64,000 nt of DNA from a virus: the IMG/VR virus record IMGVR_UViG_3300050501_000377. One strand, written 5' to 3'. The translations under genes and the position numbers were made by a program. Below are positions 26,516 through 42,758 of this stretch, piece after piece (positions within the stretch are counted from its first letter, which is position 1; the number at the start of each line of letters is the position of its first letter). A model generated the notes under the pieces. It had not been told where the DNA came from. It made no database searches and saw only the letters and a list, made by a program, of their open reading frames with translations.

Positions 26516-26542
26516 CTCGTCATCCGTCAGAGGTGCATCGTC

Positions 26543-27214: not shown

Positions 27215-27216
27215 CG

Positions 27217-27408: not shown

Positions 27409-27409
27409 C

Positions 27410-28567
27410 ATGGAGCGCATCCCCTGCCTGCTGGTCGGCGACGGCCCGCAGGAACCCACCGGATTGGGACGGATCGCCCGGGACCTCGGCGTGCTCATCG
27501 GGGCGCGCAACCTCCCGCTCGATCTCGTCTCGGTCGGCGGGGCCGTGCCGCCCTGCTGGACGGCGTGGCCGCACGTCCCGATGGGCGTCGCCGAGCGGGG
27601 CGACGACTGGGGCGCGAAGTTCGTCGCCGCGATCTGGAAGGACCGCTTCGGCGAGCAGCCAGGCGTGCTGTTCCTGGTCTGGGATCCGGCGCGCCTCTAT
27701 GCATATTGCGACATCGACGTGCCGGCGAAGAAGTGGTGCTACACCGCGGTCGATTCGCACAACCGCCTGGGCGGATTGTCCGGCCCGCCCGCTGTCCCGC
27801 TGCAGACGTTCGACCGCGTGCTCGCCTATACCCGCTGGGGCGCACAGATCATCAAGTCCGTGCGCGGCGAGGACGTGAGCTACCTGCCGCACGGCCTCTG
27901 GCCGGCGGACTACAGCGAGGCGAGCGACACCGAGCGGGAGTGGGTGACGTCGCGCCTCGGGCCATACATCAATCGGGACGACACGCTCATCGGCTGCGTC
28001 GCCACCAACCAGCCGCGGAAGGATCTCGCGCTCTTCTTCGAGACGCTCGCCGTGCTGGCCGCGCGCGGGCGGAAGGTCTACGGCTGGCTGCACACCGACC
28101 TGCTGGTCAATGCCTGGAGCATCACCCAGCTGGTCGAGGACTGCGGCCTGCAGAAGCGCGTCACCGTGACGCTCGGCACGATGAACGACCGGCAGCTGGC
28201 CTGCTTCTACCAGCGCTGCGACCTGACGATCGCCCCGGGGTTGGGCGAAGGCTTCGGCTATCCGATCGTCGAGTCGCTCGCGGCCGGCGTGCCGGTCATC
28301 CATGGTGACTTCGGCGGCGGCAGTGAGCTGGTGCCGAAGGTCGAGTGGCGCGTGCCGATGCGCGAGTACCGCACCGAGAGCGTCTATGCGCTGCGCCGGC
28401 CGGTCTTCCGCATCGAGGATGTGGCGAACGCCGCCGAGCGGGCGCTCACCTGGCGAGACGAGGTCGGCCGGGAGACCGCCGCCGCGTATTGCCGCGGCAG
28501 CGTCGCGCACCTCGATTGGGAGGCGCTCGGCGACCGCTGGGTGAGCTGGATACGGAGCGGGCTATGA
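27410..28567 (+). CDS. glycosyltransferase, GT-B fold (GT4-like)
   Basis: C-terminal signature APGLGEGFGYPIVESLAAGVPVIHGDFGGGSELV is the classical E-x7-E region of GT4/GT1 enzymes. 385 aa. Confidence 0.8.
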   Translation: MERIPCLLVGDGPQEPTGLGRIARDLGVLIGARNLPLDLVSVGGAVPPCWTAWPHVPMGVAERGDDWGAKFVAAIWKDRFGEQPGVLFLVWDPARLYAYCDIDVPAKKWCYTAVDSHNRLGGLSGPPAVPLQTFDRVLAYTRWGAQIIKSVRGEDVSYLPHGLWPADYSEASDTEREWVTSRLGPYINRDDTLIGCVATNQPRKDLALFFETLAVLAARGRKVYGWLHTDLLVNAWSITQLVEDCGLQKRVTVTLGTMNDRQLACFYQRCDLTIAPGLGEGFGYPIVESLAAGVPVIHGDFGGGSELVPKVEWRVPMREYRTESVYALRRPVFRIEDVANAAERALTWRDEVGRETAAAYCRGSVAHLDWEALGDRWVSWIRSGL

Positions 28568-28773
28568 AGAAGCGCACACCGGAGATCGAGACGCTGCAGG
28601 TGCCGCACGAGTACATGGCGTTCGCCGATGCCCGCATCGCCGCGATCGTCCGGCGCGCGTGCCACGACGCGAACATCGTCGAGAGCGCCACGCGCAGCTG
28701 CTATCTGCAGGGCGTCTGGGACGGCGTGCAACTCGCCCTTGCCCGACCTGACGTGCTGGAGGCACTGCGGTGA
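28564..28773 (+). CDS. hypothetical protein, 69 aa
   Basis: The ATG overlaps the upstream stop (ATGA). Internal start of track ORF 28345..28773. Confidence 0.45.
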   Translation: MKKRTPEIETLQVPHEYMAFADARIAAIVRRACHDANIVESATRSCYLQGVWDGVQLALARPDVLEALR

Positions 28774-29030
28774 AAGCGCTGGTGCGCGCCCGCGCCATCA
28801 CCGTGACGCCGCCCGTGGGGCAGGGCAAGCCGTTCCTCGTCGCCGAGCTGCATATCAGCTGCGACATCTGCGGCGAGCACACCGTCACCTTTGCCGGCCA
28901 CCACCTGCGGCCGATCGTCGCGCTGTTCCAGGAGTTCATCGAGGCCTGCCCCGAGCTGACCGCCGAGGGCGACGTCGAAGTCGTCGGCAGACGGGAGTAC
29001 GACTTCCCGTTCGACCCGGAGAACAACTGA
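28770..29030 (+). CDS. hypothetical protein, 86 aa
   Basis: The GTG overlaps the upstream stop (GTGA). Confidence 0.45.
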   Translation: MKALVRARAITVTPPVGQGKPFLVAELHISCDICGEHTVTFAGHHLRPIVALFQEFIEACPELTAEGDVEVVGRREYDFPFDPENN

Positions 29031-29815
29031 TGCTGGGCATTGTCACCGCGACGACCAATCGCCGACGCGCCGACCCGTGCTTCCAGTCGTGGCTGCAGCA
29101 CGCCGTGACCGACCTGCCGATCCTGGTGGTGGAGAACGGCAGCAGCGACGAGCAGCCGTACCTCGGGACCGTGCCGGCGTTCCGGCGGGGCATCGACGAG
29201 ATGCTCGTGCTGTGGCCCGACGTCGACATCATCGCCTGCCTGCATGACGACGTGCTGATCCTCGAACGGGGCTGGGACGACGTCGTCGAGACCTGCTTCC
29301 GCCGCCATCCAGACGTGGGGCTGGTCGGCTTCGGCGGCGCGATCGGCCTGGGCAGCGACGAGCTGTATCAGGAACCGTATGACCCGATGCAGCTGGCGCG
29401 GATCGGCTTCCGCAGCAATCTGGTCGACGCCGAAGCGCACGGCGCGCGGAGCCTGCTGCCGGAGGAAGTCGTCTGTCTCGACGGCTTCAGTCAGATCGGG
29501 CGGCGGGCGTTCTGGCAGGGGCGGAGTCCGAGTGGCGCGACGCACATGCCGCCGTGGGACTACCTGCAGGTGAACGGCTTTGTCCACCACTTCTACGACG
29601 GGGCGCTCGGCTGTCTCGCGCGCCGGCTGCAGTGGCAGGTCTTCTACGTCCCGGTGCAGTGCCGGCACCTGGGGGGACAGACCGCTGTCGGCGACCCTGG
29701 GTATCAACGCTGGGCGGCAACACAGATTAACGGAGGCGACCGTGGGTTCTGGGAACAAGCACATCGAAAAGGCTATGACCTCTTCAGAGACGTCCTCCCG
29801 CTCCGAGTTGCCTGA
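29030..29815 (+). CDS. glycosyltransferase-like, GT-A fold (GT2-like)
   Basis: MLGIVTATTNRR...LPILVVENGSSD...IIACLHDDVLILERGW shows the N-terminal Rossmann-like start and an HDD (DxD-type) motif. The ATG overlaps the upstream TGA by 1 nt. Confidence 0.55.
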   Translation: MLGIVTATTNRRRADPCFQSWLQHAVTDLPILVVENGSSDEQPYLGTVPAFRRGIDEMLVLWPDVDIIACLHDDVLILERGWDDVVETCFRRHPDVGLVGFGGAIGLGSDELYQEPYDPMQLARIGFRSNLVDAEAHGARSLLPEEVVCLDGFSQIGRRAFWQGRSPSGATHMPPWDYLQVNGFVHHFYDGALGCLARRLQWQVFYVPVQCRHLGGQTAVGDPGYQRWAATQINGGDRGFWEQAHRKGYDLFRDVLPLRVA

Positions 29816-30038
29816 GGCGCGCGGTCGCGTGCAGCGCCTCTACCCCGAGCGCGGCTTCGGCTTCATCCGCTGCACCGAGGGCGTGGGGGAAGTCGGCAAG
29901 GACTACTTCTTTCACATGAGTGGTCTCGACGACCGGCGGATCGAGGAGCTGGAGGAAGGCGCGATGGTGGTGTTCGAGCCGCGCGTGGTCGCCAAGGGGC
30001 TGCGAGCGGAACACATTCGGAGTGAGAGCGGGTTGTGA
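29775..30038 (+). CDS. cold-shock domain protein (CspA family)
   Basis: ERGFGFIRC...KDYFFHMSGL match the RNP1/RNP2-type motifs of cold-shock proteins. Start uncertain: ATG 29775 overlaps the GT gene by 41 nt, and TTG 29808 or GTG 29829 are alternatives. Confidence 0.7.
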   Translation: MTSSETSSRSELPEARGRVQRLYPERGFGFIRCTEGVGEVGKDYFFHMSGLDDRRIEELEEGAMVVFEPRVVAKGLRAEHIRSESGL

Positions 30039-32542
30039 TGGCGGTCACCCGACAAGTGACGCCGCCCGACCCGGATCTCGCCTTTGCGGCGCCGGTCGCA
30101 CCCGTGGTGCAGCCCCGGCGACGGGCGCCGATCGAACGGGCGCCGATCGAGATGGAGCCGGCGCCCGCCCCGGTCGTGACGCCAGCAGCGCGCGTCGAGG
30201 CACCGTCAATCCTGCCGGACCTCGGCCCACCCCGCGCGGCTGATGGGACGCTGTGGGCAGCGCCGGCTCCAACCTTCACCTATCTGGCGGGGCCGGCGGG
30301 GAGCGGCAAGACCTTCGCGACCCGGGAGTGGGCGGAGAAGGAGCCGGGGCTGGTGCTGTGCGCGACGACCGGGATTGCGGCGATCAATCTCGGCGGCGAA
30401 ACGATCAACAGCGTGCTCGGCTACTTCGACACCGCCAGCCTGCAGGAGGCCTACATCACCGGCTTCCTCACCGCCAAGCTCGGGAAACTGTGGAAGTCGG
30501 GCGTGCGCCGGCTGGTGCTGGATGAAGTGAGCATGTTGGCGGGCGACCAGCTCACCTTCCTGGTGCGGGCGATCGACGAAGTGAACGGGCGCGGGTATGT
30601 CCTCGGCAAGAGCACGCCGGACGACGACGACCCGCCGCAGATGGGGCTGACGCTGGTGGGCGACTTCGCGCAGCTGAGTCCGGTGAAGGCGAGCTATGCG
30701 TTCGAGTCGCCCGAGTGGGAGCGCTTCGCGCCGAACGTCATCACCCTGGACCGCATCTACCGCCAGGACGACCAGGACTTCATCGCCGTGCTGCGGGCGG
30801 CGCGCCATGGCCGCGGGCGGGTGGTGGCGGAGTACTTCGCCAGCCGGAACGCCATCAACCACGAGACCGACGATCACTACGACGGCCCGACCATCGTCGC
30901 GAAGAACGAGTCGGTCGACCGCTTCAACTACCTGCGGATGTCACAGCTGCAGGGCAAAGAGCTGAAGTTCACCAGTCACCGCTGGGGGAAGCTCAGAAGC
31001 GAGTGGGGCCAGCTGGAGAAGCCGGAGGCGCAGTGGGGCATCCCGAAGGTGCTGCCGCTGAAGATCGGCGCGCTGGTGATGATCCTCGCCAACCGCCGGA
31101 CCGAGCTGCTGCCGCGGCGGCTGCTGTATGTCAACGGCGACCTCGGGACGATCGTCGACGCCACCGAGGCGACCTGCTGGGTCGAGCTGCAGCGCACCGG
31201 CGAGGTGGTGGAAGTCGAGCCGGTCACCCGGGATGTGAAGGTGCCGTGTGACTCGGCGCGGAGGAAAGAGCTGCGCGAGAAAGGGCCGGAGGGCGCGACA
31301 CGGATCGACGGCAAGTGGGAAGTGGTCGGGAGCATTACCTACCTGCCGCTCAGAGTTGCATATGCATCGACGGTGCATAAGTGCGTCGCGCCGGACACGC
31401 GCGTGTTAGTCGCCGGCCGCGGCGCTGTGCGCGTGTGTGATCTACGCGTCGGCGAGTGGATCGATACGGGCGGCGGCCTCGCACGCCTCAAGGCGGTGGC
31501 GCAGACCGAGTGTCGTCTGCATCGACTGACCACCGCGCGCGGCTACACACTGCTCTGCTCGCCCGACCATCGGTGGAAGACGCCGCATGGCTTCCGCCAG
31601 ACGTGCAAGCTCGTCCCCGATCACCCGATCTGCCTAACGACAACCGCGACGATCACCGGCACACAGGAGATCGACAGCGACCTCGCGTGGTGGATCGGTG
31701 CCTCGCTCGGCAACGCCGCCTGGGCTGACCAGCGCGAAGGCCAGATCCACTTCACCAGCGAGGTCGCGCACCTGCGCGAGCGCTGGATGGCGATCGCGCA
31801 GCGACTCGGTGGGCGGCCGAACACACGCCGCGACGAGCGCGGCTGTCATCTCACCAGCCTGCCACTGCGGCTCCGGCTCGCAGCGTGGGGCTGCGACTAC
31901 GTCACCGCGGTGGACAAGCGCGTCCCTGAGGCGATTTGGACGTCGGGGCCGTCGGCTTGGGCGGCGTGCCTACAGGGCCTGTTCGACACCGATGGCTCGA
32001 TGATCGATCGCCGGCTGGTCTACGCGACGCGGTCGGAAGGACTCGCCTGCGACGTGCAGCAGCTGTTGTTGTATCTCGGCATCGCCAGCACGCGCGGCAC
32101 CTACGCGGGACCGACGGGGCCGTACCAGCACGTCTGGATCAATGCGGAGCAACGCGACCGCTACGAAGCGCTGGTCGGCTTCTCCCACCCCGAGAAACAG
32201 CGCGCACTAGGCGAGTGGCATCCGAACCGCGTGATCAAGCACTTCGACGGGACGGACACTGTCAAGACGATCGAGTGCCTGAAGGTGATCGTGCCGATGT
32301 TCGACATCGAGCTGGAAACGATCCACGAGCTAGGCTTCGGGCCGTTCGTCGGCAGCAACTCGCAGGGACTGAGTCTCGATCGGGTCCAGGTCAACATCCG
32401 CGACCCGTTCTTCAAGTCGCCAGGGATGCTCTATGTCGCGTTGAGCCGAGCGAGAAGTGCCGCCGGGTTGCGATTGGTCGGCAGCCCGCAGGCGCTGGTG
32501 GAGCGGTGCGTGACGGACCCGCGGCTGCGGGCGTGGTTGTGA
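30038..32542 (+). CDS. SF1B DNA helicase (Pif1/RecD/Dda-like) interrupted by an intein
   Basis: Walker A GPAGSGKTF, Walker B LVLDEVSML, GDFAQLSPV. The motif STVHK|SQGLS is split by a 326-aa insertion, and LYVALSRAR follows. ATG 30038 overlaps the upstream TGA; GTG 30035 is an alternative. Confidence 0.85.
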   Translation: MAVTRQVTPPDPDLAFAAPVAPVVQPRRRAPIERAPIEMEPAPAPVVTPAARVEAPSILPDLGPPRAADGTLWAAPAPTFTYLAGPAGSGKTFATREWAEKEPGLVLCATTGIAAINLGGETINSVLGYFDTASLQEAYITGFLTAKLGKLWKSGVRRLVLDEVSMLAGDQLTFLVRAIDEVNGRGYVLGKSTPDDDDPPQMGLTLVGDFAQLSPVKASYAFESPEWERFAPNVITLDRIYRQDDQDFIAVLRAARHGRGRVVAEYFASRNAINHETDDHYDGPTIVAKNESVDRFNYLRMSQLQGKELKFTSHRWGKLRSEWGQLEKPEAQWGIPKVLPLKIGALVMILANRRTELLPRRLLYVNGDLGTIVDATEATCWVELQRTGEVVEVEPVTRDVKVPCDSARRKELREKGPEGATRIDGKWEVVGSITYLPLRVAYASTVHKCVAPDTRVLVAGRGAVRVCDLRVGEWIDTGGGLARLKAVAQTECRLHRLTTARGYTLLCSPDHRWKTPHGFRQTCKLVPDHPICLTTTATITGTQEIDSDLAWWIGASLGNAAWADQREGQIHFTSEVAHLRERWMAIAQRLGGRPNTRRDERGCHLTSLPLRLRLAAWGCDYVTAVDKRVPEAIWTSGPSAWAACLQGLFDTDGSMIDRRLVYATRSEGLACDVQQLLLYLGIASTRGTYAGPTGPYQHVWINAEQRDRYEALVGFSHPEKQRALGEWHPNRVIKHFDGTDTVKTIECLKVIVPMFDIELETIHELGFGPFVGSNSQGLSLDRVQVNIRDPFFKSPGMLYVALSRARSAAGLRLVGSPQALVERCVTDPRLRAWL
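31382..32359 (+). mobile_element. intein (326 aa) with LAGLIDADG homing-endonuclease domain
   Basis: Begins CVAPDTRVLV right after helicase TVHK, has block B-like LLCSPDHRW, and ends FVGSN followed by +1 Ser. LAGLIDADG-type motifs are LAWWIGASLGN (degenerate) and LQGLFDTDGS. In frame with both exteins. Confidence 0.8.
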
Positions 32543-32555
32543 AAAGGGGGGAGTG

Positions 32556-34139
32556 ATGGCGGGTGAACGACGGCGAATGTATGACCTCATCGACCACATC
32601 GTGGCCGATGCCGAGCAGCTGCGGAGCGAAGTCGACCAGGCCTTCCCGGCGCCGATCGACGTGCCGACGGTGAAGGTGCCGGTCGGCGAGAGCGTGCAGA
32701 CGGCGTATGACGCGCTGGAGCCGACCGGCGGCATCATCCAGCTGGAGGTCGGGACGCATCTCGGCGAGTTGCGGATCCGCGAGCGCCCACCGGACGCGCC
32801 GTGGGTGACGATCACCAGTGATAGCAGCGAGTACCCGCCGGTCGGGTCGATGATCACACCGGAGTACCTGCCGGCGCTGGGCGTGCTGCAGGGAGTGACC
32901 AAAACCACCTCTCCCATCCGCATCCAGAACAAAGCGCACCACGTCGCCTTTGTGAATATCGGCATCGGGCCGCCACTGACCAAGAGCTACTCGCACGTCG
33001 AGATGGGCGGCGACAAGCGCAACATGCTCACGCCGGAAGACCGCCCCGACGGGTTCCTCTTTGACCGCTGCTACATCTTCGGTGACCCGGTCCTCGGCGG
33101 GCATCGCGGCATCACCCTGAATGCGTCGAACGTCACGGTGAGCAGCTGCTACATCAAGGACATCTTCGAGCCGGGGCGGGATAGCCAGGCGGTCAGCGCC
33201 TGGAACGGCGGCCAGTATCTCAAGATCGAGAACTGCTTCTTAGAGGGCGGGGCCGAGAACGTCATGTTCGGCGGCAGCGACTGCGCCTCGCCGGAGATGG
33301 CGTGCTCCGACATTCTCATCAGCCGCTGCCACCTGAGTAAGAACTACGCCTGGATGTCCCTCGCCAGTCAGCCGAGTATCAAGTGCTTGTTCGAGATCAA
33401 GTCGGTCAAACGGTTGCGGATGGAGCACTGCTTGTTGGAGTGCAACTGGAAGCGAGACTGGTCGACCGGGGTGGGCGTGATGCTCAAGGCCTGTAATCAA
33501 GAGGGCGGCGAGCCGACAGCGACGTGCGAGGACGTCGTCCTGGAGAACCTGGTCATTAGAAATGTGGGGAGTGTGTTCGGCATTATCGGGAAGAACGACA
33601 GCGGCCAGACGAGTGACTGGATGCGGCGCGTCGCGATTCGCAACGTGCTCGCCTACGACATCAACCAGACACCGTATCTCGGCACCGGCCGCGGGATGCC
33701 GGTCGCCAACGGCGTCGATGACGGCATCGTCATCGACCATGTGACCTATCACAGCAACAGTCACTCGTGGATGAACTTCTACACCGATAGCGGCATTACC
33801 GCGTCGCCCGGGCCGCTGGCGTTCCAGAACTCGATGGTCTGCGAGGGCAGCTACGGCTATCTCTCCGCCACCAACGGCATCGGCTTCGCGGCGCTCAAGA
33901 AGGACTGGCCGCACGCGCAGACGGTCGTGACCGGCAACTGCTTCAAGGCGGGGAGTCGATCGCAGGGGACGCTGCCGCCCGACAACATCCGGCTGTCGGC
34001 GGCCGACTGGGAGGCGAGCCTCGGGCCGGACCACATGGTGCTGCCAGGCTCGCCGGCAAACGCCGTCAACACGACCGATGGCACGCCGCCGGGGGCGAGC
34101 TTCACACCGCCCGCGCGCGTCGGCACCTATAGCCGGTAA
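32556..34139 (+). CDS. right-handed parallel beta-helix repeat protein (polysaccharide lyase/hydrolase/epimerase-like)
   Basis: Successive coils: GITLNASNVTVSSCYIKD, LKIENCFLEGGAENVMFGG, ILISRCHLSKN, LRMEHCLLECNW, VVLENLVIRNVG, VAIRNVLAYDI, IVIDHVTYHSNS. GTG 32553 is an alternative start. Confidence 0.65.
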   Translation: MAGERRRMYDLIDHIVADAEQLRSEVDQAFPAPIDVPTVKVPVGESVQTAYDALEPTGGIIQLEVGTHLGELRIRERPPDAPWVTITSDSSEYPPVGSMITPEYLPALGVLQGVTKTTSPIRIQNKAHHVAFVNIGIGPPLTKSYSHVEMGGDKRNMLTPEDRPDGFLFDRCYIFGDPVLGGHRGITLNASNVTVSSCYIKDIFEPGRDSQAVSAWNGGQYLKIENCFLEGGAENVMFGGSDCASPEMACSDILISRCHLSKNYAWMSLASQPSIKCLFEIKSVKRLRMEHCLLECNWKRDWSTGVGVMLKACNQEGGEPTATCEDVVLENLVIRNVGSVFGIIGKNDSGQTSDWMRRVAIRNVLAYDINQTPYLGTGRGMPVANGVDDGIVIDHVTYHSNSHSWMNFYTDSGITASPGPLAFQNSMVCEGSYGYLSATNGIGFAALKKDWPHAQTVVTGNCFKAGSRSQGTLPPDNIRLSAADWEASLGPDHMVLPGSPANAVNTTDGTPPGASFTPPARVGTYSR

Positions 34140-34157
34140 CAGGAACAGGAGGCGGCA

Positions 34158-34859: not shown

Positions 34860-34876
34860 GCGGCCGGCGAGCGGTG

Positions 34877-35404: not shown

Positions 35405-36216
35405 AGATCCTCTGCACGCACCCCGGGCGATACGGCGATCTGTTGTGGGCGCTGCCGACGGTGCGCGCCCTCAGCCACAACGCCAACGTGCCGGTCGATC
35501 TCCTCCTCGGGCCGACCTATGCCGACCCGAGCTTCTGCAGTCTGCTCAGCCGGCAGATCTATATCGGCCAGGTGCTGGTCGCCCACGATTGGGAGATTCA
35601 CGAGACCGCGCCGATCACGCCGCGCGAGCCGCCCACCCTCCCGAGCGGCTACGACATCGTCCTCCACCTCGCGTATGACGGCTGGCCGAAGCTCTCCCTG
35701 CCTTATGAGACCTACCGGATCGCTGAGGACCAGCTGCCGCTGACGATGCCGCTCGCACTCGACCCGTGGCTGGCGCCGCCCTTCCAGATGCCGACCAGCC
35801 GGATCGTGGTCGGCTTCAGCGATGAGCACTTCGAGCTGAAGTACGGGCTGTACTGGCTGCTGCGGCAGCACTTCGTCCAGGAGGACTCGCCGCCAGCCAG
35901 TGACGTGCTGAATGTCAGTGGCGGCCCGCGCTGGAAGCCGTACGGCTACACCTGCGATTGGGAGTCGGCCGCGGGCTGGATCGCCACGGCGAGTGTGTTC
36001 GTCGGCTGCTGCTCGGCGCTGCATGTACTCGCGTGCGCGCTCGGCACGCCGGTGGTGATGATCGAGCCGAACACGATGCGGCACCACGATGTGTTCTACC
36101 CCTACGGCAAAGCGAGCGACCAGGTCTGGCTGGTGCTGGGTCTCGACGGGCAGCCGACGTTTGATAGCCGGCACCTCGTCGATGTGGTGCGTGAGCGCCT
36201 GGCGGTGCTGGCGTGA
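35401..36216 (+). CDS. glycosyltransferase family 9-like (heptosyltransferase-like)
   Basis: N-terminal MKILCTHPGRYGDLLWALPTVRAL and C-terminal VGCCSALHVLACALGTPVVMI resemble the two conserved GT9 regions. The ATG overlaps the upstream stop (ATGA). Confidence 0.6.
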   Translation: MKILCTHPGRYGDLLWALPTVRALSHNANVPVDLLLGPTYADPSFCSLLSRQIYIGQVLVAHDWEIHETAPITPREPPTLPSGYDIVLHLAYDGWPKLSLPYETYRIAEDQLPLTMPLALDPWLAPPFQMPTSRIVVGFSDEHFELKYGLYWLLRQHFVQEDSPPASDVLNVSGGPRWKPYGYTCDWESAAGWIATASVFVGCCSALHVLACALGTPVVMIEPNTMRHHDVFYPYGKASDQVWLVLGLDGQPTFDSRHLVDVVRERLAVLA

Positions 36217-36590
36217 GTCGGCTGGTGAACTTCGGGCTGGGGGAAGTCTGCGACCGGCTGACCATCCTGGCGCTGAAGATCCTGCATGGCGAGGTCAAGG
36301 GGATCGACGTGACGCACTTCCAGCGCGAGCGCGCCGCCTTGCTGCCGAAGCTGCTGGCGGCGAGCGCCGGCCGCTGGACCGAGCACTACAGCGACCTGGC
36401 GGCGGTGAACTCGGCGCTGTGGCAGGCCGAGGATCGGCTGCGTGGGTATAAGCAGGAGGGGACGAAGGTGAGCCACCGCGAGGAGATCATCGAGTGCGCC
36501 TTCCGCATCCAGGAGTGGAACGACCGGCGGGCGGCGCTGATTCAGTCGATCAACGCGCTGGTCGGCGACGCGGTGCAGGAGAAGGTATGA
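36213..36590 (+). CDS. hypothetical protein, 125 aa (reminiscent of DUF4254-type proteins found beside heptosyltransferases)
   Basis: VNSALWQAEDRLR motif in an all-helical protein. The GTG overlaps the upstream stop (GTGA). The family assignment is from memory only. Confidence 0.45.
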   Translation: MSRLVNFGLGEVCDRLTILALKILHGEVKGIDVTHFQRERAALLPKLLAASAGRWTEHYSDLAAVNSALWQAEDRLRGYKQEGTKVSHREEIIECAFRIQEWNDRRAALIQSINALVGDAVQEKV

Positions 36591-36703
36591 GCGAGCGGCA
36601 GGAGATCGCGCTCGGTATGCGCCCCCGCAGCCTCAGCGGCTGGTGGTTCTGGCTGCGCTACTGGTCGCCCGTCGCGGCGTGGTGGCGGAGGAGAGGGCTA
36701 TGA
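36587..36703 (+). CDS. Trp-rich micro-ORF, 38 aa
   Basis: MSERQEIALGMRPRSLSGWWFWLRYWSPVAAWWRRRGL, with ATGA overlaps at both ends bridging two longer genes. Confidence 0.3.
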   Translation: MSERQEIALGMRPRSLSGWWFWLRYWSPVAAWWRRRGL

Positions 36704-37650
36704 GAGTCCTACTGGTCACGACCTGGGGCACGGCCTGCGGCATCGCTGAGCACTCGGCGATGCTGACCGACGCGGTCGAGCAGGCCGATCCGTCGATCGA
36801 CATGCTGCCCGACGTGGCAGCCCTCGACCCGGCGCACGTCGACGTGACCGAGGTCGAGGTCGTGCATCTCAACTATCACGCCGCCCTGCACTCGCGCTGG
36901 TGGCCGGAACACATCGCGCAGCTGCGGCGGCGCGTCCCGGTCGTCGTCACCTATCACGACAGCGGCGTCCCGAACTCCGATCAGTGCAAGGCAATCGTCG
37001 ACGCGGCCGACGCCGCGGTCGTGCATGAGCCGTTCGACGATCTGCCCGCCGAGAAGACCCGCTACTGGCGGATGGGCGTCCCCGAGTGGACCCGCCCGCC
37101 GCAGTCACTCCGGGACGACAAGCCGCTGCTCGGCACGATCGGCTTCCCGAACGCCTGGAAGAACTACGACGCGCTCTGCGACATCACCAAGGCGGCTGGC
37201 TGGGACCTGCTGCTGCTGGCGCCGGGGGCGACCGTCGAACAGGTCGCGGAGTGGCAGCGGCGTCAGCCGGAGGTCATCGTCCACCCTGAGTTCGTCGAGC
37301 GTGCGAAAGCGATCAGTTTGCTCGCCGGCTGCGACGCGACGGCGTTCCTTTACACCTGCGCGTTTGCCGGACAGAGTGGCGCGCTGCTCCTGGGGATTGC
37401 GGCGCGCAAGCCGGTCTTGGCGCTGTCGTCGTGCCGGCAGTTCCGCGCCCTCTATGAAGACACGCTCGGGCATCGGGCGATTCGCTGGTATGAGAACTTC
37501 GACCAGATCACGTTCGGGCTGGAGCTGCTGGCCAGCATCCCCTCGACACAGAAACGGGATACGCACCGCATCCGGCAGCTGGCGAAGAAGGAGAGCTGGC
37601 AGCGGCTGGGAGCGAAGTACGCGCAGCTCTATCGGGAGGTAGCCCAGTGA
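36700..37650 (+). CDS. glycosyltransferase-like, GT-B fold
   Basis: MRVLLVTTWGTACGIAEHSAMLTDAV is a typical GT-B N-terminus. The C-terminal region is FLYTCAFAGQSGALLLGIAARKPVLAL. GGAGGAGAGGG RBS. Confidence 0.6.
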   Translation: MRVLLVTTWGTACGIAEHSAMLTDAVEQADPSIDMLPDVAALDPAHVDVTEVEVVHLNYHAALHSRWWPEHIAQLRRRVPVVVTYHDSGVPNSDQCKAIVDAADAAVVHEPFDDLPAEKTRYWRMGVPEWTRPPQSLRDDKPLLGTIGFPNAWKNYDALCDITKAAGWDLLLLAPGATVEQVAEWQRRQPEVIVHPEFVERAKAISLLAGCDATAFLYTCAFAGQSGALLLGIAARKPVLALSSCRQFRALYEDTLGHRAIRWYENFDQITFGLELLASIPSTQKRDTHRIRQLAKKESWQRLGAKYAQLYREVAQ

Positions 37651-38285
37651 GCCTGACTTGCCTGTCACGCACGCTCGACCCGAAGGACTACGACCACCTG
37701 GAGCACGAGCTGCAGACGGTCGACGCGCATCCGAACGCGCTGCCGCACACGCACCGCCGGTGGGAGTATGCGCTGGCGCTGCAGGCACTGGGCCGCTGGC
37801 GCGAGCGAGGCGGGCCGTGGGAGGGGCCGGTCTACGACATCGGCGGCGCCGGCAGTGCCTTCCATTACATGCTGCGCGACTGGACTGGGAAAGAAGTGAT
37901 CGTCGTCGACCCGGCGCTGGTCGATGGCTATCCGCTGGAGGAGTGGGTGAGCGAAGGGGGCGCCGCGCTCAGTAAGGCGGTGACCTGTCTCTCCGTCATC
38001 GAGCATGTCAAGGAGCTGGACCGCTTCCTCTATCACCTGAGTTGCCTGGTGGCGCCGGGTGGCCTGCTGGTCCTGACGATGGACTACTGGAACCGCTGCG
38101 GGCCGGACACGACCGGGAACAAGGAACTGCGCGAGCGGCTGTTCTGCCAGAAGACCTACGCGCAGCTGCGCCAGACGCTCGCGGCCCTGCACCTCACCGC
38201 CTTTGGCGGGGTGGATCCGACCTTTCATGGGCTGCACGTCTGGGACTACACCTTCGCCAGTCTGGTGGTGGAGAAGCGGCTGTGA
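37647..38285 (+). CDS. class I SAM-dependent methyltransferase
   Basis: Motif I VYDIGGAGS, post-I VIVVDP, and LSVIEHVKELDRFLYHLSCLVAPGGLLVLTM. The GTG overlaps the upstream stop. Confidence 0.7.
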   Translation: MSLTCLSRTLDPKDYDHLEHELQTVDAHPNALPHTHRRWEYALALQALGRWRERGGPWEGPVYDIGGAGSAFHYMLRDWTGKEVIVVDPALVDGYPLEEWVSEGGAALSKAVTCLSVIEHVKELDRFLYHLSCLVAPGGLLVLTMDYWNRCGPDTTGNKELRERLFCQKTYAQLRQTLAALHLTAFGGVDPTFHGLHVWDYTFASLVVEKRL

Positions 38286-38836
38286 GTGTGGTGACCGCGC
38301 TGTCGCGGACCTGTAATCTCCGGGACTTCCCCGGCTGCATCACGGTCGCCGACTGGCAGCAGAGCCTGGCGGAGGAGGCCTGGGCGCTGTGGGAGAGCGA
38401 GTATCACATTCGCACGCGCGCCTCGTCGCTGGTGGTGAACTACAGCGACATCGGCTTCATCGCCCCGGGGCCGGCGGCGGTCTACGAGTATTACGAGCAG
38501 CCGACCAACGGCATCCACCGCGGGCTGCCGGCGATCTGGGGACTGTGCGTGCTCGATCGGACGGAAGCGCCGGTCAAGTTCCTGTCGCGCGCCGCGCTCG
38601 TCCTGCGGCAGCACGGGCTGCTGTTCCTGACCTTTGCCTTCTGGGATGCCGAGGGAGAAGACACCGCGGCGGGGCATCAGCATCGGATGCGGATCTACGA
38701 CGAGCGCAACTGGCGCAAGCTGATCGTCGACGCCAAGCGCGCCGGCTTCCAGACCTTCGGCGGTGTCGACTGGACCTATCACGGCAACCTGCTCGACGAC
38801 CATTCACTGGCGAGCCTGGTGCTGACAAGGAGATAG
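38282..38836 (+). CDS. methyltransferase-fold paralog lacking an obvious glycine-rich SAM loop
   Basis: LCVLDRTEAPVKFLSRAALVLRQHGLLFLTFAF and the C-terminus GGVDWTYHGNLLDDHSLASLVLTRR parallel the preceding gene (GGVDPTFHGLHVWDYTFASLVVEKRL). The GTG overlaps the upstream stop. Confidence 0.5.
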   Translation: MSVVTALSRTCNLRDFPGCITVADWQQSLAEEAWALWESEYHIRTRASSLVVNYSDIGFIAPGPAAVYEYYEQPTNGIHRGLPAIWGLCVLDRTEAPVKFLSRAALVLRQHGLLFLTFAFWDAEGEDTAAGHQHRMRIYDERNWRKLIVDAKRAGFQTFGGVDWTYHGNLLDDHSLASLVLTRR

Positions 38837-40084
38837 ATGATGCAGTGCAGGAGCTGCCGCGGGAGCCTCGATTCGTTTCTCGACCTGGGAAGCATCCAGC
38901 TGTCGGGGTATCTCGAACCGGAGGAGGACCGCCGGCCGCGGGTGCCGCTGGTGCTCGCCGCGTGTGTCGAGTGCGGGCTGGTGCAGCTGCAGGACACCAC
39001 GCCGCGCGAGCTGCTGTTCGAGCGCTACTGGTATCAGTCGGGGATCAACGAGGTGATGAAGGCGGAGCTGCACGATGTCGTCGATGCCGCACGCCGACGG
39101 GTGCCGGCGACCGAGGAGTATGTCGTCTTCGACCTGGGCGCGAACGACGGCACGCTGCTGGCGCGCTACGCCGACGAGCGGCTGGCCCTGCCGAAGCCGC
39201 TGCGGGTGGCGTTCGAGCCGGCCAAGAACCTGCAGGCGCGTCTGCAGCCGCACGCCGACATGGTCATCGCCAGCTACTTCCCCGACCAGTACTCGGTGGT
39301 GCGGCAGTTCGAGCACAAGGTCAACGTGATCACCTCGATCGCGATGTTCTACGCGGTGAATGATCTGGCGACCTTCCTCACCGCCGTGCAGGCGCTGCTG
39401 CACCCGAACGGCGTCTGGATCGTCCAGATGCAGGATCTTGCCGGAATGCTCCGCGCCCGCGCCTTCGACAACGTCTGTCACGAGCACCTGGCGTATTACT
39501 CGCTGCACACCTTCAAGCACCTGGTCGAACGCTTCGGGCTGGTGGTGACGGATGTCGAGTTGCGCCAGATCAACGGGGGCAGCTACCGGATCTACGTCCA
39601 GCACCCGGGCCATCCGGTCAGCCCGCACGTCGCCCAGACCCTGGCGGAGGAGGCCTGGTGCCAGGAGTGGTCGACGCTGGAGCGCTTCGCCTGGAATGTC
39701 CGGCAGGTGCGGCAGCAGATCCGCGCGACGCTCGATGTGCGCCGCGGCCTCGGCCAGACGATCGACCTCTACGGCGCGAGCACCAAGGCGAACACGCTCT
39801 TGCAGGTCTGTGAACTGAACCGCAACTGGCTGCGGCAGGCGTGGGAGCGCAGCCCCGAGAAGATCGGGCGGCGCACCGTCGCCACCAACATCCCGATCGT
39901 CAGCGAGGAGACGGGGCGGATGGACCCGCCCGATGCGCTGCTGGTCGGCATCTGGCAGTTCCGCGACGCGGTGATTGCGCGCGAGGCCAAGTTCCTGCAC
40001 CAGGAGCGCGGCACGCTGATCTTCCCGCTGCCGAGCGTCGACATCGTCACCGCCAGGAGCACCATCCATGCAGCTCACGCTTGA
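38837..40084 (+). CDS. NDP-hexose C-methyltransferase-type enzyme (zinc ribbon + SAM MTase + C-terminal C-MT domain)
   Basis: N-terminal CRSCRG...CVECGLVQL zinc ribbon, VVFDLGANDGTLL SAM loop, CHEHLAYYSL, and a C-terminal LYGASTKANTLLQ Rossmann-like domain. I recall this architecture from TylCIII-type sugar C-methyltransferases. Confidence 0.75.
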   Translation: MMQCRSCRGSLDSFLDLGSIQLSGYLEPEEDRRPRVPLVLAACVECGLVQLQDTTPRELLFERYWYQSGINEVMKAELHDVVDAARRRVPATEEYVVFDLGANDGTLLARYADERLALPKPLRVAFEPAKNLQARLQPHADMVIASYFPDQYSVVRQFEHKVNVITSIAMFYAVNDLATFLTAVQALLHPNGVWIVQMQDLAGMLRARAFDNVCHEHLAYYSLHTFKHLVERFGLVVTDVELRQINGGSYRIYVQHPGHPVSPHVAQTLAEEAWCQEWSTLERFAWNVRQVRQQIRATLDVRRGLGQTIDLYGASTKANTLLQVCELNRNWLRQAWERSPEKIGRRTVATNIPIVSEETGRMDPPDALLVGIWQFRDAVIAREAKFLHQERGTLIFPLPSVDIVTARSTIHAAHA

Positions 40085-40175
40085 GATCGGGGGGAATTTG
40101 CTGGCGGCGCTGGTGGTCGGGGTGCTGGCGGTGCTGGTGATTCAGTGGTGGCGGTTTCGTAGCGGGAGGCGGTAG
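40068..40175 (+). CDS. small hydrophobic peptide, 35 aa
   Basis: MQLTLEIGGNLLAALVVGVLAVLVIQWWRFRSGRR with AGGAGC 8 nt upstream. It overlaps the C-MT gene end by 17 nt. Confidence 0.35.
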   Translation: MQLTLEIGGNLLAALVVGVLAVLVIQWWRFRSGRR

Positions 40176-40393
40176 TGAGAAGCAGTGATATGATGCATAT
40201 GCTACCTGCTGCGGCTGACCCGACTAAGATGCTCACGCTCGAACAGGTTGCCGAGCAGCTGCAGATCGAGCCGCGTGCGGTACGCAAGCTGTGCGCCCGC
40301 GGTGATCTGGAGTACGTGAAGATTGGGCCGAAGACGCTGCGCTTCAAACCCGAGTGGATCGACGCACTCATCAAACGAAAGCAGGGACGGTAG
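40175..40393 (+). CDS. xis: excisionase / MerR-type HTH DNA-binding protein
   Basis: LTLEQVAEQLQIEPRAVRKLCARGDLEYVKIGPKTLRFKPEWIDALI is the excisionase-family HTH-plus-wing pattern. It lies immediately upstream of the integrase. GTG start after GGGAGG; internal Met starts are possible. Confidence 0.65.
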   Translation: MRSSDMMHMLPAAADPTKMLTLEQVAEQLQIEPRAVRKLCARGDLEYVKIGPKTLRFKPEWIDALIKRKQGR

Positions 40394-41599
40394 ATGGCGA
40401 AGTGGAAGGATGGCGTCGCGATGCGGGGCAAGACCTGGTGGATCCGCGCACAGCACGAGGGCGATCGAACCTCAGGTTTCGGCTCGGTGAAGAAGTTCGC
40501 GTTCCTGCTCGAACCGCACCAGCCGATCCCGACGACGAAGACCGATACGATGATGCTGAAGCGCCGCGTCGAGGACTGGTTGGTACGGGGGAAGCCGATG
40601 CCGACACCGAAGGTAGAAGCGCCAGCGCCGGTCGTCGAGCTGCACGGCTACGACTTGATCAACCGCTGGATCGCGACCAAGACGCGCAAGCAATCAGCAG
40701 CCGACTTGTCAAAGGAGCGCGCCGCGCAGCAGGCGTTCGGCGCGCTGCCGTTGTCGAAGTGGGAGAACGCCGAGACCTTCCGCGACTACGTCACGCGGAT
40801 GACCGACGCCGGCTTCCAGATCGCCACGCCGAACCGCGTCCTCGCCGCCGTCGTCCGTCCGGCGCTGCTGTGGGGGTTGAACCAGCGTCCCGCTCTCGTC
40901 ACCTTCAATCCGTTCGGTCGCTACCAGTTCAAGATCGACATCAAGGCCGAGAACAGACGCACCGAGCGCTGCGACCCGAACAGCGAGGCGTGGCTGTTGG
41001 AGATGTGCTACGGGCCGCTCGCCACCGCGAAGCACCGGAAGGCAGGGCCGGCGCTCGCCGACTACATCATCCTTGGGATCGACTTCGGGGCGCGGGCGGG
41101 CGAGCTACTCAACCTGAAGAACCAGGACGTCGACTGGCACGCCTGCACCGTCACCCTCCGACGCACCAAGCGCGGCGAGTTCCGCGTGGTGCCGTTCAAT
41201 CCAGTCGGGCGCGTGGCGGAGATCCTCAAACGCCGCCGGTTCGCTGGCGCTGCGGCCTACGTGGTCACGCTGCGGAAGGTCTTCAAGCTCTGGGTCCAGG
41301 CGGTCTGCCTCGTCCACGGTATCCCGTGCGAGTACCTCGGGCGCGGCAAGTACTTCACCGCGGAGACTCGCGAGGCGTACAAGGCCGCGAACCTGCGCCC
41401 GCACGACTTCCGGCACGAGGCGGCGACGTGGTGGGGACTGTGCGGCGTGTCGGACGCGACCGCGAAGTTCCTGCAGGGGCACACCTCGCAGGCCGATACG
41501 CACGGGCGCTACAAGCACGAGGAGCTGCGGCTGGCGACGCAGGAGCTGCGGGAGAAGGTCTGGTCGCGTGAGAACGAGCGGGCGCAGAAGACGGCGTGA
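40394..41599 (+). CDS. int: tyrosine integrase
   Basis: The C-terminal catalytic region has HDFRHEAATWW (HxxR) and GHTSQADTHGRYKH (catalytic Tyr). 401 aa, adjacent to a tRNA. Confidence 0.85.
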   Translation: MAKWKDGVAMRGKTWWIRAQHEGDRTSGFGSVKKFAFLLEPHQPIPTTKTDTMMLKRRVEDWLVRGKPMPTPKVEAPAPVVELHGYDLINRWIATKTRKQSAADLSKERAAQQAFGALPLSKWENAETFRDYVTRMTDAGFQIATPNRVLAAVVRPALLWGLNQRPALVTFNPFGRYQFKIDIKAENRRTERCDPNSEAWLLEMCYGPLATAKHRKAGPALADYIILGIDFGARAGELLNLKNQDVDWHACTVTLRRTKRGEFRVVPFNPVGRVAEILKRRRFAGAAAYVVTLRKVFKLWVQAVCLVHGIPCEYLGRGKYFTAETREAYKAANLRPHDFRHEAATWWGLCGVSDATAKFLQGHTSQADTHGRYKHEELRLATQELREKVWSRENERAQKTA

Positions 41600-41675
41600 T
41601 GGTGGCGAGGGCCAGAATCGAACTGGCGACACCTGCATTTTCAGTGCAGTGCTCTACCGACTGAGCTACCTCGCC
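41600..41675 (-). tRNA. tRNA-Phe(GAA): tRNA-Phe (anticodon GAA), full length with encoded CCA
   Basis: The reverse complement GGCGAGGTAGCTCAGTCGGTAGAGCACTGCACTGAAAATGCAGGTGTCGCCAGTTCGATTCTGGCCCTCGCCACCA folds by hand into a cloverleaf. Acceptor GGCGAGG/CCTCGCC, D stem GCTC/GAGC, anticodon stem CTGCA/TGCAG with loop CTGAAAA, T stem GCCAG/CTGGC with TTCGATT. Confidence 0.85.
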
Positions 41676-41685
41676 AAACCGGTCT

Positions 41686-41711
41686 CCAAGTGGATCAAAA
41701 GTGGATCAAAA
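41686..41711. repeat. 26-bp arm-type repeat, copy 1 (internally tandem GTGGATCAAAA x2)
   Basis: ccaagtggatcaaaagtggatcaaaa is identical to 41877-41902. Confidence 0.85.
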
Positions 41712-41876
41712 GTAGGCCGATGACCGAAATCCTTAGCAATTTCGCACGAGAACAGGGATTTTCAGTCCCAATTTTCCGCCCGAAAAGCCCCGAGAAGCGA
41801 CCCGCTTCCACCCGCACCCTCGATTTTCCTAACAAATTACGACCTGACCGTACCCGACCGTACCCCACGTTTCTCA

Positions 41877-41902
41877 CCAAGTGGATCAAAAGTGGATCAA
41901 AA
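41877..41902. repeat. 26-bp arm-type repeat, copy 2
   Basis: Exact direct repeat of 41686-41711. The 165-bp lower-GC DNA between the copies also holds gaccgtaccc x2 and three gattttc motifs. Confidence 0.85.
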
Positions 41903-41972
41903 AACGGTACATGAAACGACCGATTTTCGTCCGTTCGGAGGATTGACACGGCCTGCTGACCCGTGGGCGGTG

Positions 41973-42758
41973 ATGCCGGTGCTGGCCCATCCGCCCTACA
42001 CCGAAGCAGCGATCGCCGACGTCCTCGCGCAGACCCTGCCCTGCCGCCTGCTGGTGGTCAACCAGGGCGTCGACACCGACTTCAGAAGGCGCCTGGAGCG
42101 CATCAGTGAGGAGCACCCGCGCGTGCTCGTGTGGAGCCACCAGCCGCCGCTGCCGAGTTTGGCGTGGACGTGGAACCGGGCGCTCGACTTCTGCTGGGCC
42201 GCGGGCGCGCACCAGGCGCTGGTGGTGAACAACGACGTGCGGCTGGCGCCCAACACACTGTCGCTGCTCCTCGACGAGCTGCAGATCGCCAACGCGCTGT
42301 TTGTCACCGCCGTCGGTGTGAGCAAGCAGCAGTTCGCGCCGGGACAGCTCGCGCTCACCGAGGGGGGCAACGGCAAGGGCGGCCCCGACTTCAGCTGCTT
42401 CCTCGTCAGCCAGGCGTGCCACCAGCGCTTCCGCTTCGACGTGAACTTCGTGCCGGCGCACTGCGAGGACCTCGACTACCACCGCCGGCTGATGCTCGCC
42501 GGGGAGGGACGACGGATCTACAGCATCAACGTGCCGTTCCTGCACTACGGCGCGACCACGTTGAAGAGTGTCGACGCGGCGACGCGCGAGCGGATCGAGC
42601 GGCAGACCGCGGCGTATGCGCGGACCTATTACGCGCGCAAGTGGGGCGGGCCGGTGAACGCGGAGCGCTACCGCGTGATGTTCGACGGCGAGCCGGTCGA
42701 GGGCGTGACGACGCCCGAGCTGCAGGAGGCGACATGGGCAAGCGACCAGACGAGTTGA
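41973..42758 (+). CDS. glycosyltransferase family 2-like (GT-A)
   Basis: VMPVLAHPPYTEAAIADVLAQTLPCRLLVVNQGVD...WTWNRALDFCWAAGAHQALVVNNDVRL is the typical GT2 N-terminal half. The upstream part of the track ORF runs through the repeat and is rejected. Start is ATG 41973 or GTG 41970. Confidence 0.65.
   Translation: MPVLAHPPYTEAAIADVLAQTLPCRLLVVNQGVDTDFRRRLERISEEHPRVLVWSHQPPLPSLAWTWNRALDFCWAAGAHQALVVNNDVRLAPNTLSLLLDELQIANALFVTAVGVSKQQFAPGQLALTEGGNGKGGPDFSCFLVSQACHQRFRFDVNFVPAHCEDLDYHRRLMLAGEGRRIYSINVPFLHYGATTLKSVDAATRERIERQTAAYARTYYARKWGGPVNAERYRVMFDGEPVEGVTTPELQEATWASDQTS

Follow-up and report, generated by a model that had tools for sequence, protein, structure and literature searches.

In this study, we analysed a 64,000-nucleotide stretch of viral DNA (IMG/VR record IMGVR_UViG_3300050501_000377; "the window" below means this whole stretch) and found that the interval 27410–42758 holds a conserved, co-inherited cassette of distinctive composition for the assembly and tailoring of a glycan. 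The genes in question encode five glycosyltransferases (GTs), a DUF4254 protein and methyltransferases, among them a nucleoside diphosphate (NDP)-sugar C-methyltransferase, and they very probably make up one dedicated glycan pathway. We propose, tentatively, that this pathway is soluble and cytoplasmic, is inherited as a unit and acts on proteins of the virion. A sequence-only reading of the same DNA had listed five GT-like open reading frames (ORFs), three ORFs of methyltransferase fold, a beta-helix protein, a cold-shock protein, a helicase, an excisionase, an integrase and a tRNA-Phe. Each of these was found where that reading had put it, to within a few codons, on the plus strand (the tRNA-Phe on the minus strand). 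The GT and methyltransferase folds were confirmed by profile and structure searches, an outcome opposite to the one that the reading had named as its refutation. Genes are named here by their first nucleotide and lie on the plus strand unless stated otherwise.

The strongest evidence for a single pathway is the joint presence or joint absence of the genes in relatives of the window, with their order kept. The right-hand anchor of this comparison was the gene at 43135–46209, which encodes a uracil-DNA glycosylase (UDG) domain fused to a family A DNA polymerase (UDG, E = 4.1e-17; DNA_pol_A, 2.6e-23). As a query, this UDG-PolA protein retrieved 24 IMG/VR contigs at 45–81% identity, many of them 68–72 kb in length, and one contig, from a distant relative, that is binned in a Gemmatimonadales metagenome-assembled genome and provides the sole lead to a host. 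Related loci are referred to by L numbers (L001–L037). The gene order in relatives with the cassette runs ATPase, GT4, GT-A, (cold-shock domain), helicase, (FkbM methyltransferase), GT9-like, DUF4254, GT-B, methyltransferase, (methyltransferase paralog), C-methyltransferase, a variable slot, GT2, small ORFs and UDG-PolA, and it is kept at only 40–60% protein identity in L013, L014, L021–L024 and L035–L037. The window, L014, L024 and L035–L037 each hold a set of six genes (GT-A, GT9-like, GT-B, methyltransferase, C-methyltransferase and GT2), and L013 and L021–L023 do so within the extent of those loci. In most of them the set comes with DUF4254, which tblastn did not detect in L021 or L035. 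Seven relatives (L003, L005, L006, L007, L010, L015 and L017), two of whose genomes are ~75–80% covered by the fetched loci, lack GT4, GT-A, GT9-like, DUF4254, GT-B, C-methyltransferase and GT2 altogether, and these seven are the phages closest to the window in polymerase, capsid and portal (76–91% identity). Family sizes in public data are also alike, with 479 homologs of the GT9-like protein, 542 of the GT-B and 574 of the GT-A. This joint presence and absence, together with the kept gene order, strengthens the earlier claim of one dedicated pathway.

The co-occurrence of the six genes in every cassette-bearing genome examined, their joint absence from at least eight relatives, the order retained through so much divergence, the similar family sizes and the translational coupling of the genes by 4-bp overlaps all speak against the alternative that there is no single pathway, and that a permissive region has merely taken up unrelated auxiliary GTs and methyltransferases or houses a small-molecule glycoside pathway. 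That alternative can call on a GT4 homolog found in L025 without the remaining cassette genes, on a methyltransferase paralog (38282, below) that persists without any GT in cassette-less phages, on the beta-helix gene, which is unique to the window genome, and on the integrases, Dam genes, inteins and small ORFs that the region tolerates. Taken together, we regard it as improbable.

An indication of the chemistry comes from 38837 (38837–40084), an NDP-4-keto-hexose 3-C-methyltransferase of the TylC3/TcaB9/MtmC/KijD1 type with an N-terminal zinc ribbon. Its three domains, PF08421 (the Methyltransf_13 zinc ribbon, 2e-12), PF13489 (Methyltransf_23, 9.8e-12) and PF08484 (Methyltransf_14, 8.8e-32), all scored above their cutoffs, and the HEH-L-x-Y active-site stretch is present. 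Full-length PDB matches, the best of the order of 1e-43, comprised MtmC (1.5e-43, query residues 3–407), TcaB9 (1.7e-41) and KijD1 (2.2e-38), with a range extending to 2.6e-38. The protein thus shares with the TylC3-type enzymes full-length homology, three-domain architecture, zinc ribbon and motif, and is a true member of their family, for which methylation at C-3 of an NDP-4-keto sugar is predicted. Its setting differs from the deoxysugar pathways of antibiotics in that no 2,3-dehydratase, aminotransferase or ketoreductase gene is its neighbour. Among phages, homologs were found in huge phages and one cyanophage only, at 25–31% identity. The sequence-only reading had seen here a zinc-ribbon C-methyltransferase and had suggested a methylated, possibly branched-chain glycan; the enzyme was as described, and because it is a genuine TylC3/TcaB9-type C-methyltransferase the idea of a branched-chain product gains support.

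The two methyltransferase genes upstream are of unequal standing. The class-I S-adenosylmethionine (SAM) methyltransferase 37647 (37647–38285) gave a sub-threshold match to Methyltransf_23 (1.9e-5) and homologs at E ≤ 1e-5; its SAM motif I, DxGGAGS, is intact across the family, and it is a probable sugar O-methyltransferase. Its paralog 38282 (38282–38836), identified by cross-matches and alignment, likely has the methyltransferase fold, whereas its activity is doubtful, as the SAM-binding loop (motif I) is degenerate throughout its family. A 38282-type paralog is retained at 57–66% identity in the GT-less relatives L003, L005, L007, L010, L015 and L017. Because of the degenerate loop and this persistence where GTs are missing, 38282 may not belong to the glycan pathway, and likely either has a function independent of the cassette or serves as a non-catalytic partner. 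A well-conserved 37647-type gene (54%) is likewise kept without any GT in L017 and in contig 3300045927_000329. Hence all three ORFs that had been read as methyltransferases keep that fold (38282 as likely), but only 38837 and 37647 look catalytic. In relatives, FkbM-family methyltransferase genes stand beside the GT9-like gene (L013, L021, L023, L035 and L037), and in L001 a gene for an NAD-dependent epimerase/dehydratase, a short-chain dehydrogenase/reductase (SDR) of the NDP-sugar kind, lies inside the cassette. These accessory genes point to nucleotide-sugar tailoring and O-methylated glycans.

All five GT assignments of the sequence-only reading found support, from Pfam and PHROG for 27410, from structure for 35401 and 36700, and at the level of the family for 29030 and 41973. 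The first gene, 27410 (27410–28567), encodes a GT-B, retaining-type enzyme of family GT4 (Glycos_transf_1, 1.9e-12; Glyco_trans_1_4, 2.3e-11; phrog_2170, 6.5e-27). It satisfies the CAZy definition of GT4, with 47.5 bits for Glycos_transf_1 against a cutoff of 26.4 and an E-x7-E motif reading EGFGYPIVE, and homologs of 40–61% identity occupy the same position in L035–L037. The GT-A enzyme 29030 (29030–29815) resembles Glyco_tranf_2_5 and carries an HDD motif. Its own match is modest (4.6e-4; phmmer against PDB was uninformative) and support comes from the family, PF13712 being recorded for at least 14 of 120 listed among its 574 homologs; the gene is kept in L014, L024 and L035–L037. The second GT-A enzyme, the GT2-like 41973 (41973–42758; Glycos_transf_2, 5e-3; phrog_29879, 1.3e-9), is kept beside polA in at least 10 loci. 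Four of nine members of its family match Glycos_transf_2, the best at 1.2e-6, and the family profile found nothing significant among PDB sequences. With GT2-type hidden Markov models (HMMs), 29030 (20.4 bits) and 41973 (17.2 bits; relatives up to 1.2e-6) stay below the gathering cutoff. The ORF of 41973 is open from 41892, and conservation begins upstream of the ATG at 41973.

Two of the transferases were recognised through their predicted structures, which were AlphaFold models built with alignments of 56–57 homologs. For 35401 (35401–36216; pLDDT 95.7), the top 29 Foldseek matches in PDB were all GT9 structures (7.6e-8 to 6e-6, TM score ≤0.61), the best being TibC (7.6e-8), WaaC (1.2e-7, TM 0.61), WaaF and a Veillonella GT9. 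At the sequence level, no Pfam match was obtained at E ≤ 0.01, the NCBIfam and PHROG thresholds were not reached, and a profile of the family found nothing significant among PDB sequences (TibC, E = 0.6). The nearest NCBIfam models were Aah/TibC (TIGR04414; 1.6e-4, 20.8 bits against a cutoff of 200) and RfaQ (12.6 bits). Residues G12-D13 are invariant in 57 members of the family; in GT9 enzymes the catalytic Asp lies in the N-terminal Gly-Asp loop (Asp13 in Escherichia coli WaaC). Going by the model, then, 35401 is GT9-like (heptosyltransferase-like) by fold and is not a demonstrated GT9 member by sequence. The best viral structural match of the model was a fusion of FkbM and GT9-like domains, proteins of PBCV-1 and giant viruses were among the weaker ones, and uncultured phages include proteins annotated as GT9 and as Aah/TibC.

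Translationally coupled to this gene is that of a DUF4254 protein (36213–36590; PF14063, 9.1e-8, 32.5 bits against a cutoff of 27). A survey linked DUF4254 to the heptosyltransferase RfaF in Flavobacteriia (PMC9425974), and because of that linkage the phage pair of GT9-like and DUF4254 genes mirrors a functional pair of cells. Downstream, 36700 (36700–37650; pLDDT 95.5; 542 homologs) is a GT-B enzyme whose model matched SenB (8e-13, TM 0.75) and then BshA, MshA, GlgM and PimA. It had no match in Pfam, NCBIfam or PHROG and nothing significant among PDB sequences; where E-x7-E would stand its motif region reads GQSGAxLxG, so that neither the HMM nor the motif places it in GT4, and it is GT4-like by the fold of the model only. 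Thus the C-methyltransferase, the GT4 enzyme 27410 and the DUF4254 protein are true members of their families, and the GT9-like enzyme and 36700 are assigned by fold only.

The layout of the genes resembles that of an operon. From 25007 to 41599 they are co-directional with 1–4-bp overlaps at most junctions, terminator-like sites number five against 6.9 expected by chance, no promoter-like site was found, and the only sizeable non-coding stretch, 41676–41972, lies beyond the tRNA. All five GTs are acidic (isoelectric point 5.3–6.2) and devoid of transmembrane segment and signal peptide, and no cassette protein has a transmembrane segment. Pfam and PHROG scans revealed no flippase, polymerase, ligase or Gtr-type membrane gene. 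Nor was any gene for NDP-sugar synthesis detected in the window, which fits a dependence on sugar nucleotides of the host, as the sequence-only reading had supposed.

On this basis a pathway can be proposed. The donors would be host sugar nucleotides. An NDP-4-keto-6-deoxyhexose from a rhamnose-type pathway of the host would be C-methylated by 38837, as its sequence predicts, and then 4-ketoreduced by a host enzyme, by 38837 itself (as in the bifunctional MtmC) or by an SDR such as that of L001. The GT9-like enzyme with its DUF4254 partner would, judging from the model, probably add a heptose-type sugar, and 36700, 27410, 29030 and 41973 would extend the chain, so that up to five transferases may act in sequence. 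Finally, 37647, joined in relatives by FkbM enzymes, would O-methylate or cap the chain to give a short, methylated, C-branched oligosaccharide. In lytic growth, the cassette would be transcribed jointly with the genes for helicase and polymerase. If virion proteins are the acceptor, progeny particles would on release bear a coat of short methylated, branched O-glycan, like glycosylated actinophages and chloroviruses.

Where the glycan is placed is the less certain part of the proposal. One or more structural proteins of the virion are a possible acceptor, which we favour with reserve over the host envelope and over DNA. This preference derives from the lytic-type operon, the occurrence of the cassette without a nearby integrase, the soluble acidic enzymes, the likeness to TibC and Aah, and the precedents from actinophages and giant viruses. 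TibC and Aah are protein O-heptosyltransferases and are among the top structural and NCBIfam similarities of 35401. Since the cassette is found also in relatives with no integrase within 10 kb, it is not tied to lysogeny.

In function, the cassette most resembles the virion-glycosylation genes of actinophages and the machineries of chloroviruses and mimiviruses. Freeman and colleagues reportedly described, in 2023 (Cell Host Microbe; cited in PMC13313380), virion glycosylation by GT and methyltransferase genes in the actinophages Che8, Corndog and Myrna. Shared with those cassettes are several soluble GTs, accompanied in some by methyltransferases, a location away from the structural module in tailed phages that are often temperate, the dependence on host sugar nucleotides, and a dispensable, patchy distribution among relatives. 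In contrast, no sequence relationship was detectable when the GT4, GT9-like and DUF4254 proteins were searched by tblastn against the 50,697 records of INPHARED, where 27410 matched Pontimonas and Microcystis phages only and no actinophage, and neither 35401 nor the DUF4254 protein had a match. The GT9-like/DUF4254 pair and the NDP-sugar C-methyltransferase are further differences, and virion glycosylation is here a prediction. Chloroviruses and mimiviruses place atypical methylated glycans on their capsid proteins independently of the host glycosylation machinery. Like them (for instance PBCV-1 A064R, with GT and methyltransferase domains), the phage encodes cytoplasmic GTs and sugar methyltransferases; unlike it, they are giant viruses of eukaryotes that often make their own sugar nucleotides, and no relationship exists at the sequence level. 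Sets of several GTs plus methyltransferases that decorate virions had been said to be reported only for a few actinophages, a view that proved too narrow: multi-GT sets are already described in phages of Gram-negative hosts, such as cyanomyoviruses with up to 13 GTs (PMC12801897), and thousands of phage gene clusters for DNA glycans have been described (bioRxiv 10.1101/2023.12.21.572611).

Several points weigh against virion proteins as the acceptor or against the pathway as drawn. The case is wholly computational, with both glycan and acceptor predicted from sequence and models. Along its full length, the putative major capsid protein (1415–2467, minus strand) shares 90% identity with those of cassette-less relatives, and capsid and portal proteins together are 84–91% identical to theirs; no Ser/Thr-rich tail, and thus no acceptor signature, was found in the structural proteins. 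The window shows no 4-ketoreductase that would act on the C-methylated sugar, and the sigma-70 consensus of the promoter scan may not apply to the host. The availability of ADP-heptose is an assumption, the sole host lead being the distant relative binned in Gemmatimonadales. Integration at attP would leave the cassette at both ends of the prophage, the classic position for lysogenic conversion. In cells, moreover, GT9 and DUF4254 are linked to heptosylation of the lipopolysaccharide (LPS) core and not to protein glycosylation (PMC9425974). Beside the putative capsid gene, a 187-aa protein (826–1389, minus strand) is 44–51% identical among phages whose capsids are 82–91% identical; it may decorate the head and evolve fast, and is a candidate surface or acceptor protein.

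The last two of the points against lead to the possibility, somewhat unlikely in our view, that the enzymes remodel the host envelope. Their substrate would then be lipid A-core or some other lipid-linked glycan, modified on the cytoplasmic side of the inner membrane by a small LPS-core assembly line (WaaC/F-like GT9, WaaG-like GT4, GT2 and methyl capping) that changes the cell surface to block superinfection or re-adsorption, in lysogens or late in infection. In composition the cassette does resemble an LPS-core locus joined to a tailoring step of deoxysugar antibiotics: GT9 (WaaC/WaaF), GT4 (WaaG) and GT2 are the families of LPS-core loci. The GT9-like fold has an invariant N-terminal Gly-Asp, and a further likeness, to the flavobacterial DUF4254-RfaF pair, is the position of DUF4254 directly beside the GT9-like gene, DUF4254 being genomically linked to RfaF in Flavobacteriia (PMC9425974). 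Furthermore, the fold of 35401 matches WaaC and WaaF as well as TibC, with the higher TM score for WaaC (0.61), the FkbM/RfbT-type methyltransferases of relatives are typical O-antigen modifiers, and C-methyl branched sugars do occur in LPS.

Other features fit such a role less well. The phage GT9-like protein has 271 aa against ~320–350 for the GT9 enzymes of the LPS core and scores below all GT9 HMM thresholds, and the cassette, embedded in a phage replication operon, has no Kdo transferase, kinase, ligase or heptose-synthesis gene. Membrane components are absent, and the net charge of the acidic GTs suggests, weakly, that they have no basic membrane- or Kdo-binding surface. In favour of an envelope role, the cassette of this temperate phage flanks int-attP; to this extent it is like gtrABC and other conversion cassettes (P22, SfV, Sf6 and TarP of Staphylococcus aureus), whose glycan-modifying genes adjoin int and attP. 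Unlike gtr cassettes, it has no GtrA flippase, GtrB bactoprenol GT or membrane-bound serotype-specific GT (Pfam and PHROG), comprises 7–8 soluble enzymes where known phage systems of envelope conversion have 1–3 genes, and runs in operon orientation with the replication genes. The co-directional overlap with helicase and polymerase genes, without promoter or terminator of its own, also sets it apart from typical conversion morons, and its retention in relatives without a nearby integrase points the same way.

Hypermodification of DNA is a further rival that we consider improbable: the transferases would glycosylate a modified base after replication and so evade restriction, which would explain their interleaving with helicase and UDG-PolA genes. 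The cassette sits in the replication module in all relatives, and Dam or MT-A70 genes are found in or beside it in some of them. In this respect, it is like the T4 glucosyltransferases and the DNA-hypermodification clusters described by Pyle et al. (bioRxiv 10.1101/2023.12.21.572611), in which GT-A and GT-B enzymes akin to those of LPS and teichoic acid, some adding heptose, stand among DNA-metabolism genes and build mono- to trisaccharides on 5-hydroxymethylcytosine (5hmC), heptose-containing di- and trisaccharides included (bioRxiv 10.1101/2023.12.21.572611). T4 alpha-glucosyltransferase is indeed among the structural matches of the GT-B enzyme 36700 (2.7e-9), yet it ranks only 40th. The defining C5-methyltransferase and 5mYOX (or hydroxymethylase) of those clusters were not detected here: Pfam and PHROG scans of ~50 ORFs, about half of which have no family assignment, found no C5-cytosine methyltransferase, TET/JBP dioxygenase or dCMP/dUMP hydroxymethylase, and no nucleophilic handle is evident. 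Conversely, those clusters are without sugar-tailoring methyltransferases, whereas C-methyltransferase, FkbM and SDR enzymes belong to deoxysugar tailoring, a chemistry typical for natural products and surface glycans but unreported for DNA glycans. The acidity of the GTs is a further mismatch, DNA-binding transferases being usually basic. A new type of hypermodification, in which a methylated, C-branched oligosaccharide (heptose plus 3-C-methyl-deoxyhexose) is built on phage DNA without the known 5hmC-generating enzymes, appears highly improbable; the base handle would come from an unassigned ORF, and such a system would account for the fixed place of the genes, in the whole clade, between helicase and UDG-fused polymerase. 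In L036 (19965–20840) and L037 (19570–20399), two more distant cassette-bearing relatives, the stretch between cassette and polA encodes ThyX, a 2-oxoglutarate oxygenase of the Asp/Arg-hydroxylase type, and DUF3310, cpYpsA and DUF4326 proteins; the oxygenase may bear on the DNA-modification alternative.

The window itself is most of the genome of an uncultured, temperate soil phage of ~70 kb from a populous clade. Its G+C content is 62–73% (~68% overall) with a strong GC3 bias, by which the real ORFs were picked. Other genes encode a large terminase, a DUF932 protein, the UDG::PolA fusion and an internal virion protein that contains a lytic transglycosylase domain; the gene adjoining that of the terminase is, from its position, the probable portal gene. 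A megablast of the 15-kb interval against the 50,697 deposited phage genomes of INPHARED found no relative at the nucleotide level. The GT9-like protein is encoded identically on the 71,697-bp ENA metagenome contig k141_3151102 and on shorter JGI/Logan contigs. The host is probably not an actinobacterium. The fusion of polymerase and UDG domain, the latter like family-4 UDG, is kept in all 26 relatives, and the polA genes of L010 (10240–11036) and L022 (10849–11606) have insertions of ~0.76–0.8 kb relative to that of the window; the two sites differ, and the insertions may be inteins or introns.

Between the C-methyltransferase and GT2 genes lies the integration unit: an excisionase (HTH_17; 40175–40393; Pfam 4.6e-8, phrog_66 6.7e-7), a tyrosine integrase (40394–41599; Phage_integrase 2.8e-12, phrog_1 2.9e-21) and, abutting the int stop codon, a complete tRNA-Phe(GAA) (41600–41675, minus strand; ARAGORN), the presumed attP core. 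The non-coding attP arm region (41683–41902) has at its ends two 29-nt direct repeats (41683–41711 and 41874–41902; 97% identity), separated by ~160 bp of non-coding DNA, or 191 nt start to start. Each is a tandem of AGTGGATCAAA, and they read TC(T/A)CCAAGTGGATCAAAAGTGGATCAAAA, with an 11-nt tandem; the earliest start codon available to the GT2 ORF (41892) falls within the second. They are probably arm-type sites of the integrase or an operator. In the slot where the window carries xis-int-tRNA-Phe (int and tRNA, 40394–41675), relatives have divergent tyrosine integrases (L003, 7469–8788; L017, 7850–9280; L024, 7130–8233), a tRNA-Thr(CGT) (L007, 8493–8569; L010, 8811–8887; L015, 8920–8996), a tRNA-Cys (L011, 1394–1494), Dam with small ORFs (L023 and L037) or small ORFs alone (L035). 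These integrases are too divergent for tblastn and were recognised by Pfam; with them and the other tRNAs found in the same slot, the view that xis-int-tRNA is an insertion unique to the window genome was rejected. The integrase/tRNA unit is an exchangeable insert in a conserved slot, and the exchange of such pairs suggests repeated retargeting of the integration site. For this reason the island is not built around int-attP, in disagreement with the sequence-only reading. Between the C-methyltransferase and xis genes, a 35-aa ORF (40068–40175) specifies a hydrophobic, single-pass peptide (MQLTLEIGGNLLAALVVGVLAVLVIQWWRFRSGRR); every identical contig has it annotated as a gene.

The calls for the beta-helix, cold-shock, helicase, xis, int and tRNA-Phe features were borne out by Pfam and PHROG, ARAGORN and the Beta_helix matches of homologs. 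The right-handed beta-helix protein (32553–34139), however, had been counted as part of the island, and its gene is absent from all related loci. Sixteen of 48 homologs match Beta_helix (best 1.6e-19), and the family has 4270 cluster representatives, many of whose cellular members are fused to CBM6, CBM35, BACON or PKD domains; tblastn against INPHARED phages gave no match, and phmmer against PDB was uninformative. It is an independent accessory addition from a carbohydrate-binding or -degrading family. The protein has no signal peptide and its gene is located among early genes; it may be a soluble polysaccharide depolymerase.

Other genes are interleaved with the pathway genes. We do not count the cold-shock domain protein (29775–30038; CSD, 3e-10) among the likely pathway members. 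The SF1 helicase of the PIF1/RecD type (30035–32542; AAA_30 3.7e-14, PIF1 1.8e-7, LAGLIDADG_3 8e-12) carries a 324-aa LAGLIDADG homing-endonuclease intein (nt 31385–32356, aa 451–774) exactly in SF1 motif VI. Its junctions read ...STVHK|C...GSN|SQGLS, so that splicing restores the TVHK|SQG motif, and the gene is uninterrupted (aa 451–774 missing) in all related phages. The ORF at 34158 is in no related locus, save for one weak (29%) partial match elsewhere in L005/L006. The protein encoded at 34877–35404, upstream of the GT9-like gene, is absent from relatives and has only a weak PHROG match of unknown function; a D...DVK pattern suggests a PD-(D/E)xK nuclease. Upstream of the cassette, the Walker-A ATPase (25007–26515) ends in ~50 residues that form a mucin-like Thr/Pro tract (TTTPTTTTPTTTTTPTTTTP...PPPPP), unaligned in relatives.

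In summary, comparison across an uncultured phage clade revealed a glycan cassette that is present or absent as a set, and it places two orphan families, DUF4254 and a GT-B family without an HMM, in a functional context. Its compact set of 7–8 soluble enzymes is well suited to reconstitution in E. coli. If the pathway is as proposed, its chemistry would be unusual, combining a heptosyltransferase-like enzyme with a C-methyl branched sugar. Should its target be LPS or DNA, it would be unusually large among phage-borne systems of the kind. If virions are glycosylated, phage-directed virion glycosylation would extend from a few actinophages to an abundant uncultured soil clade; each core gene has 480–570 homologs in public metagenomes.

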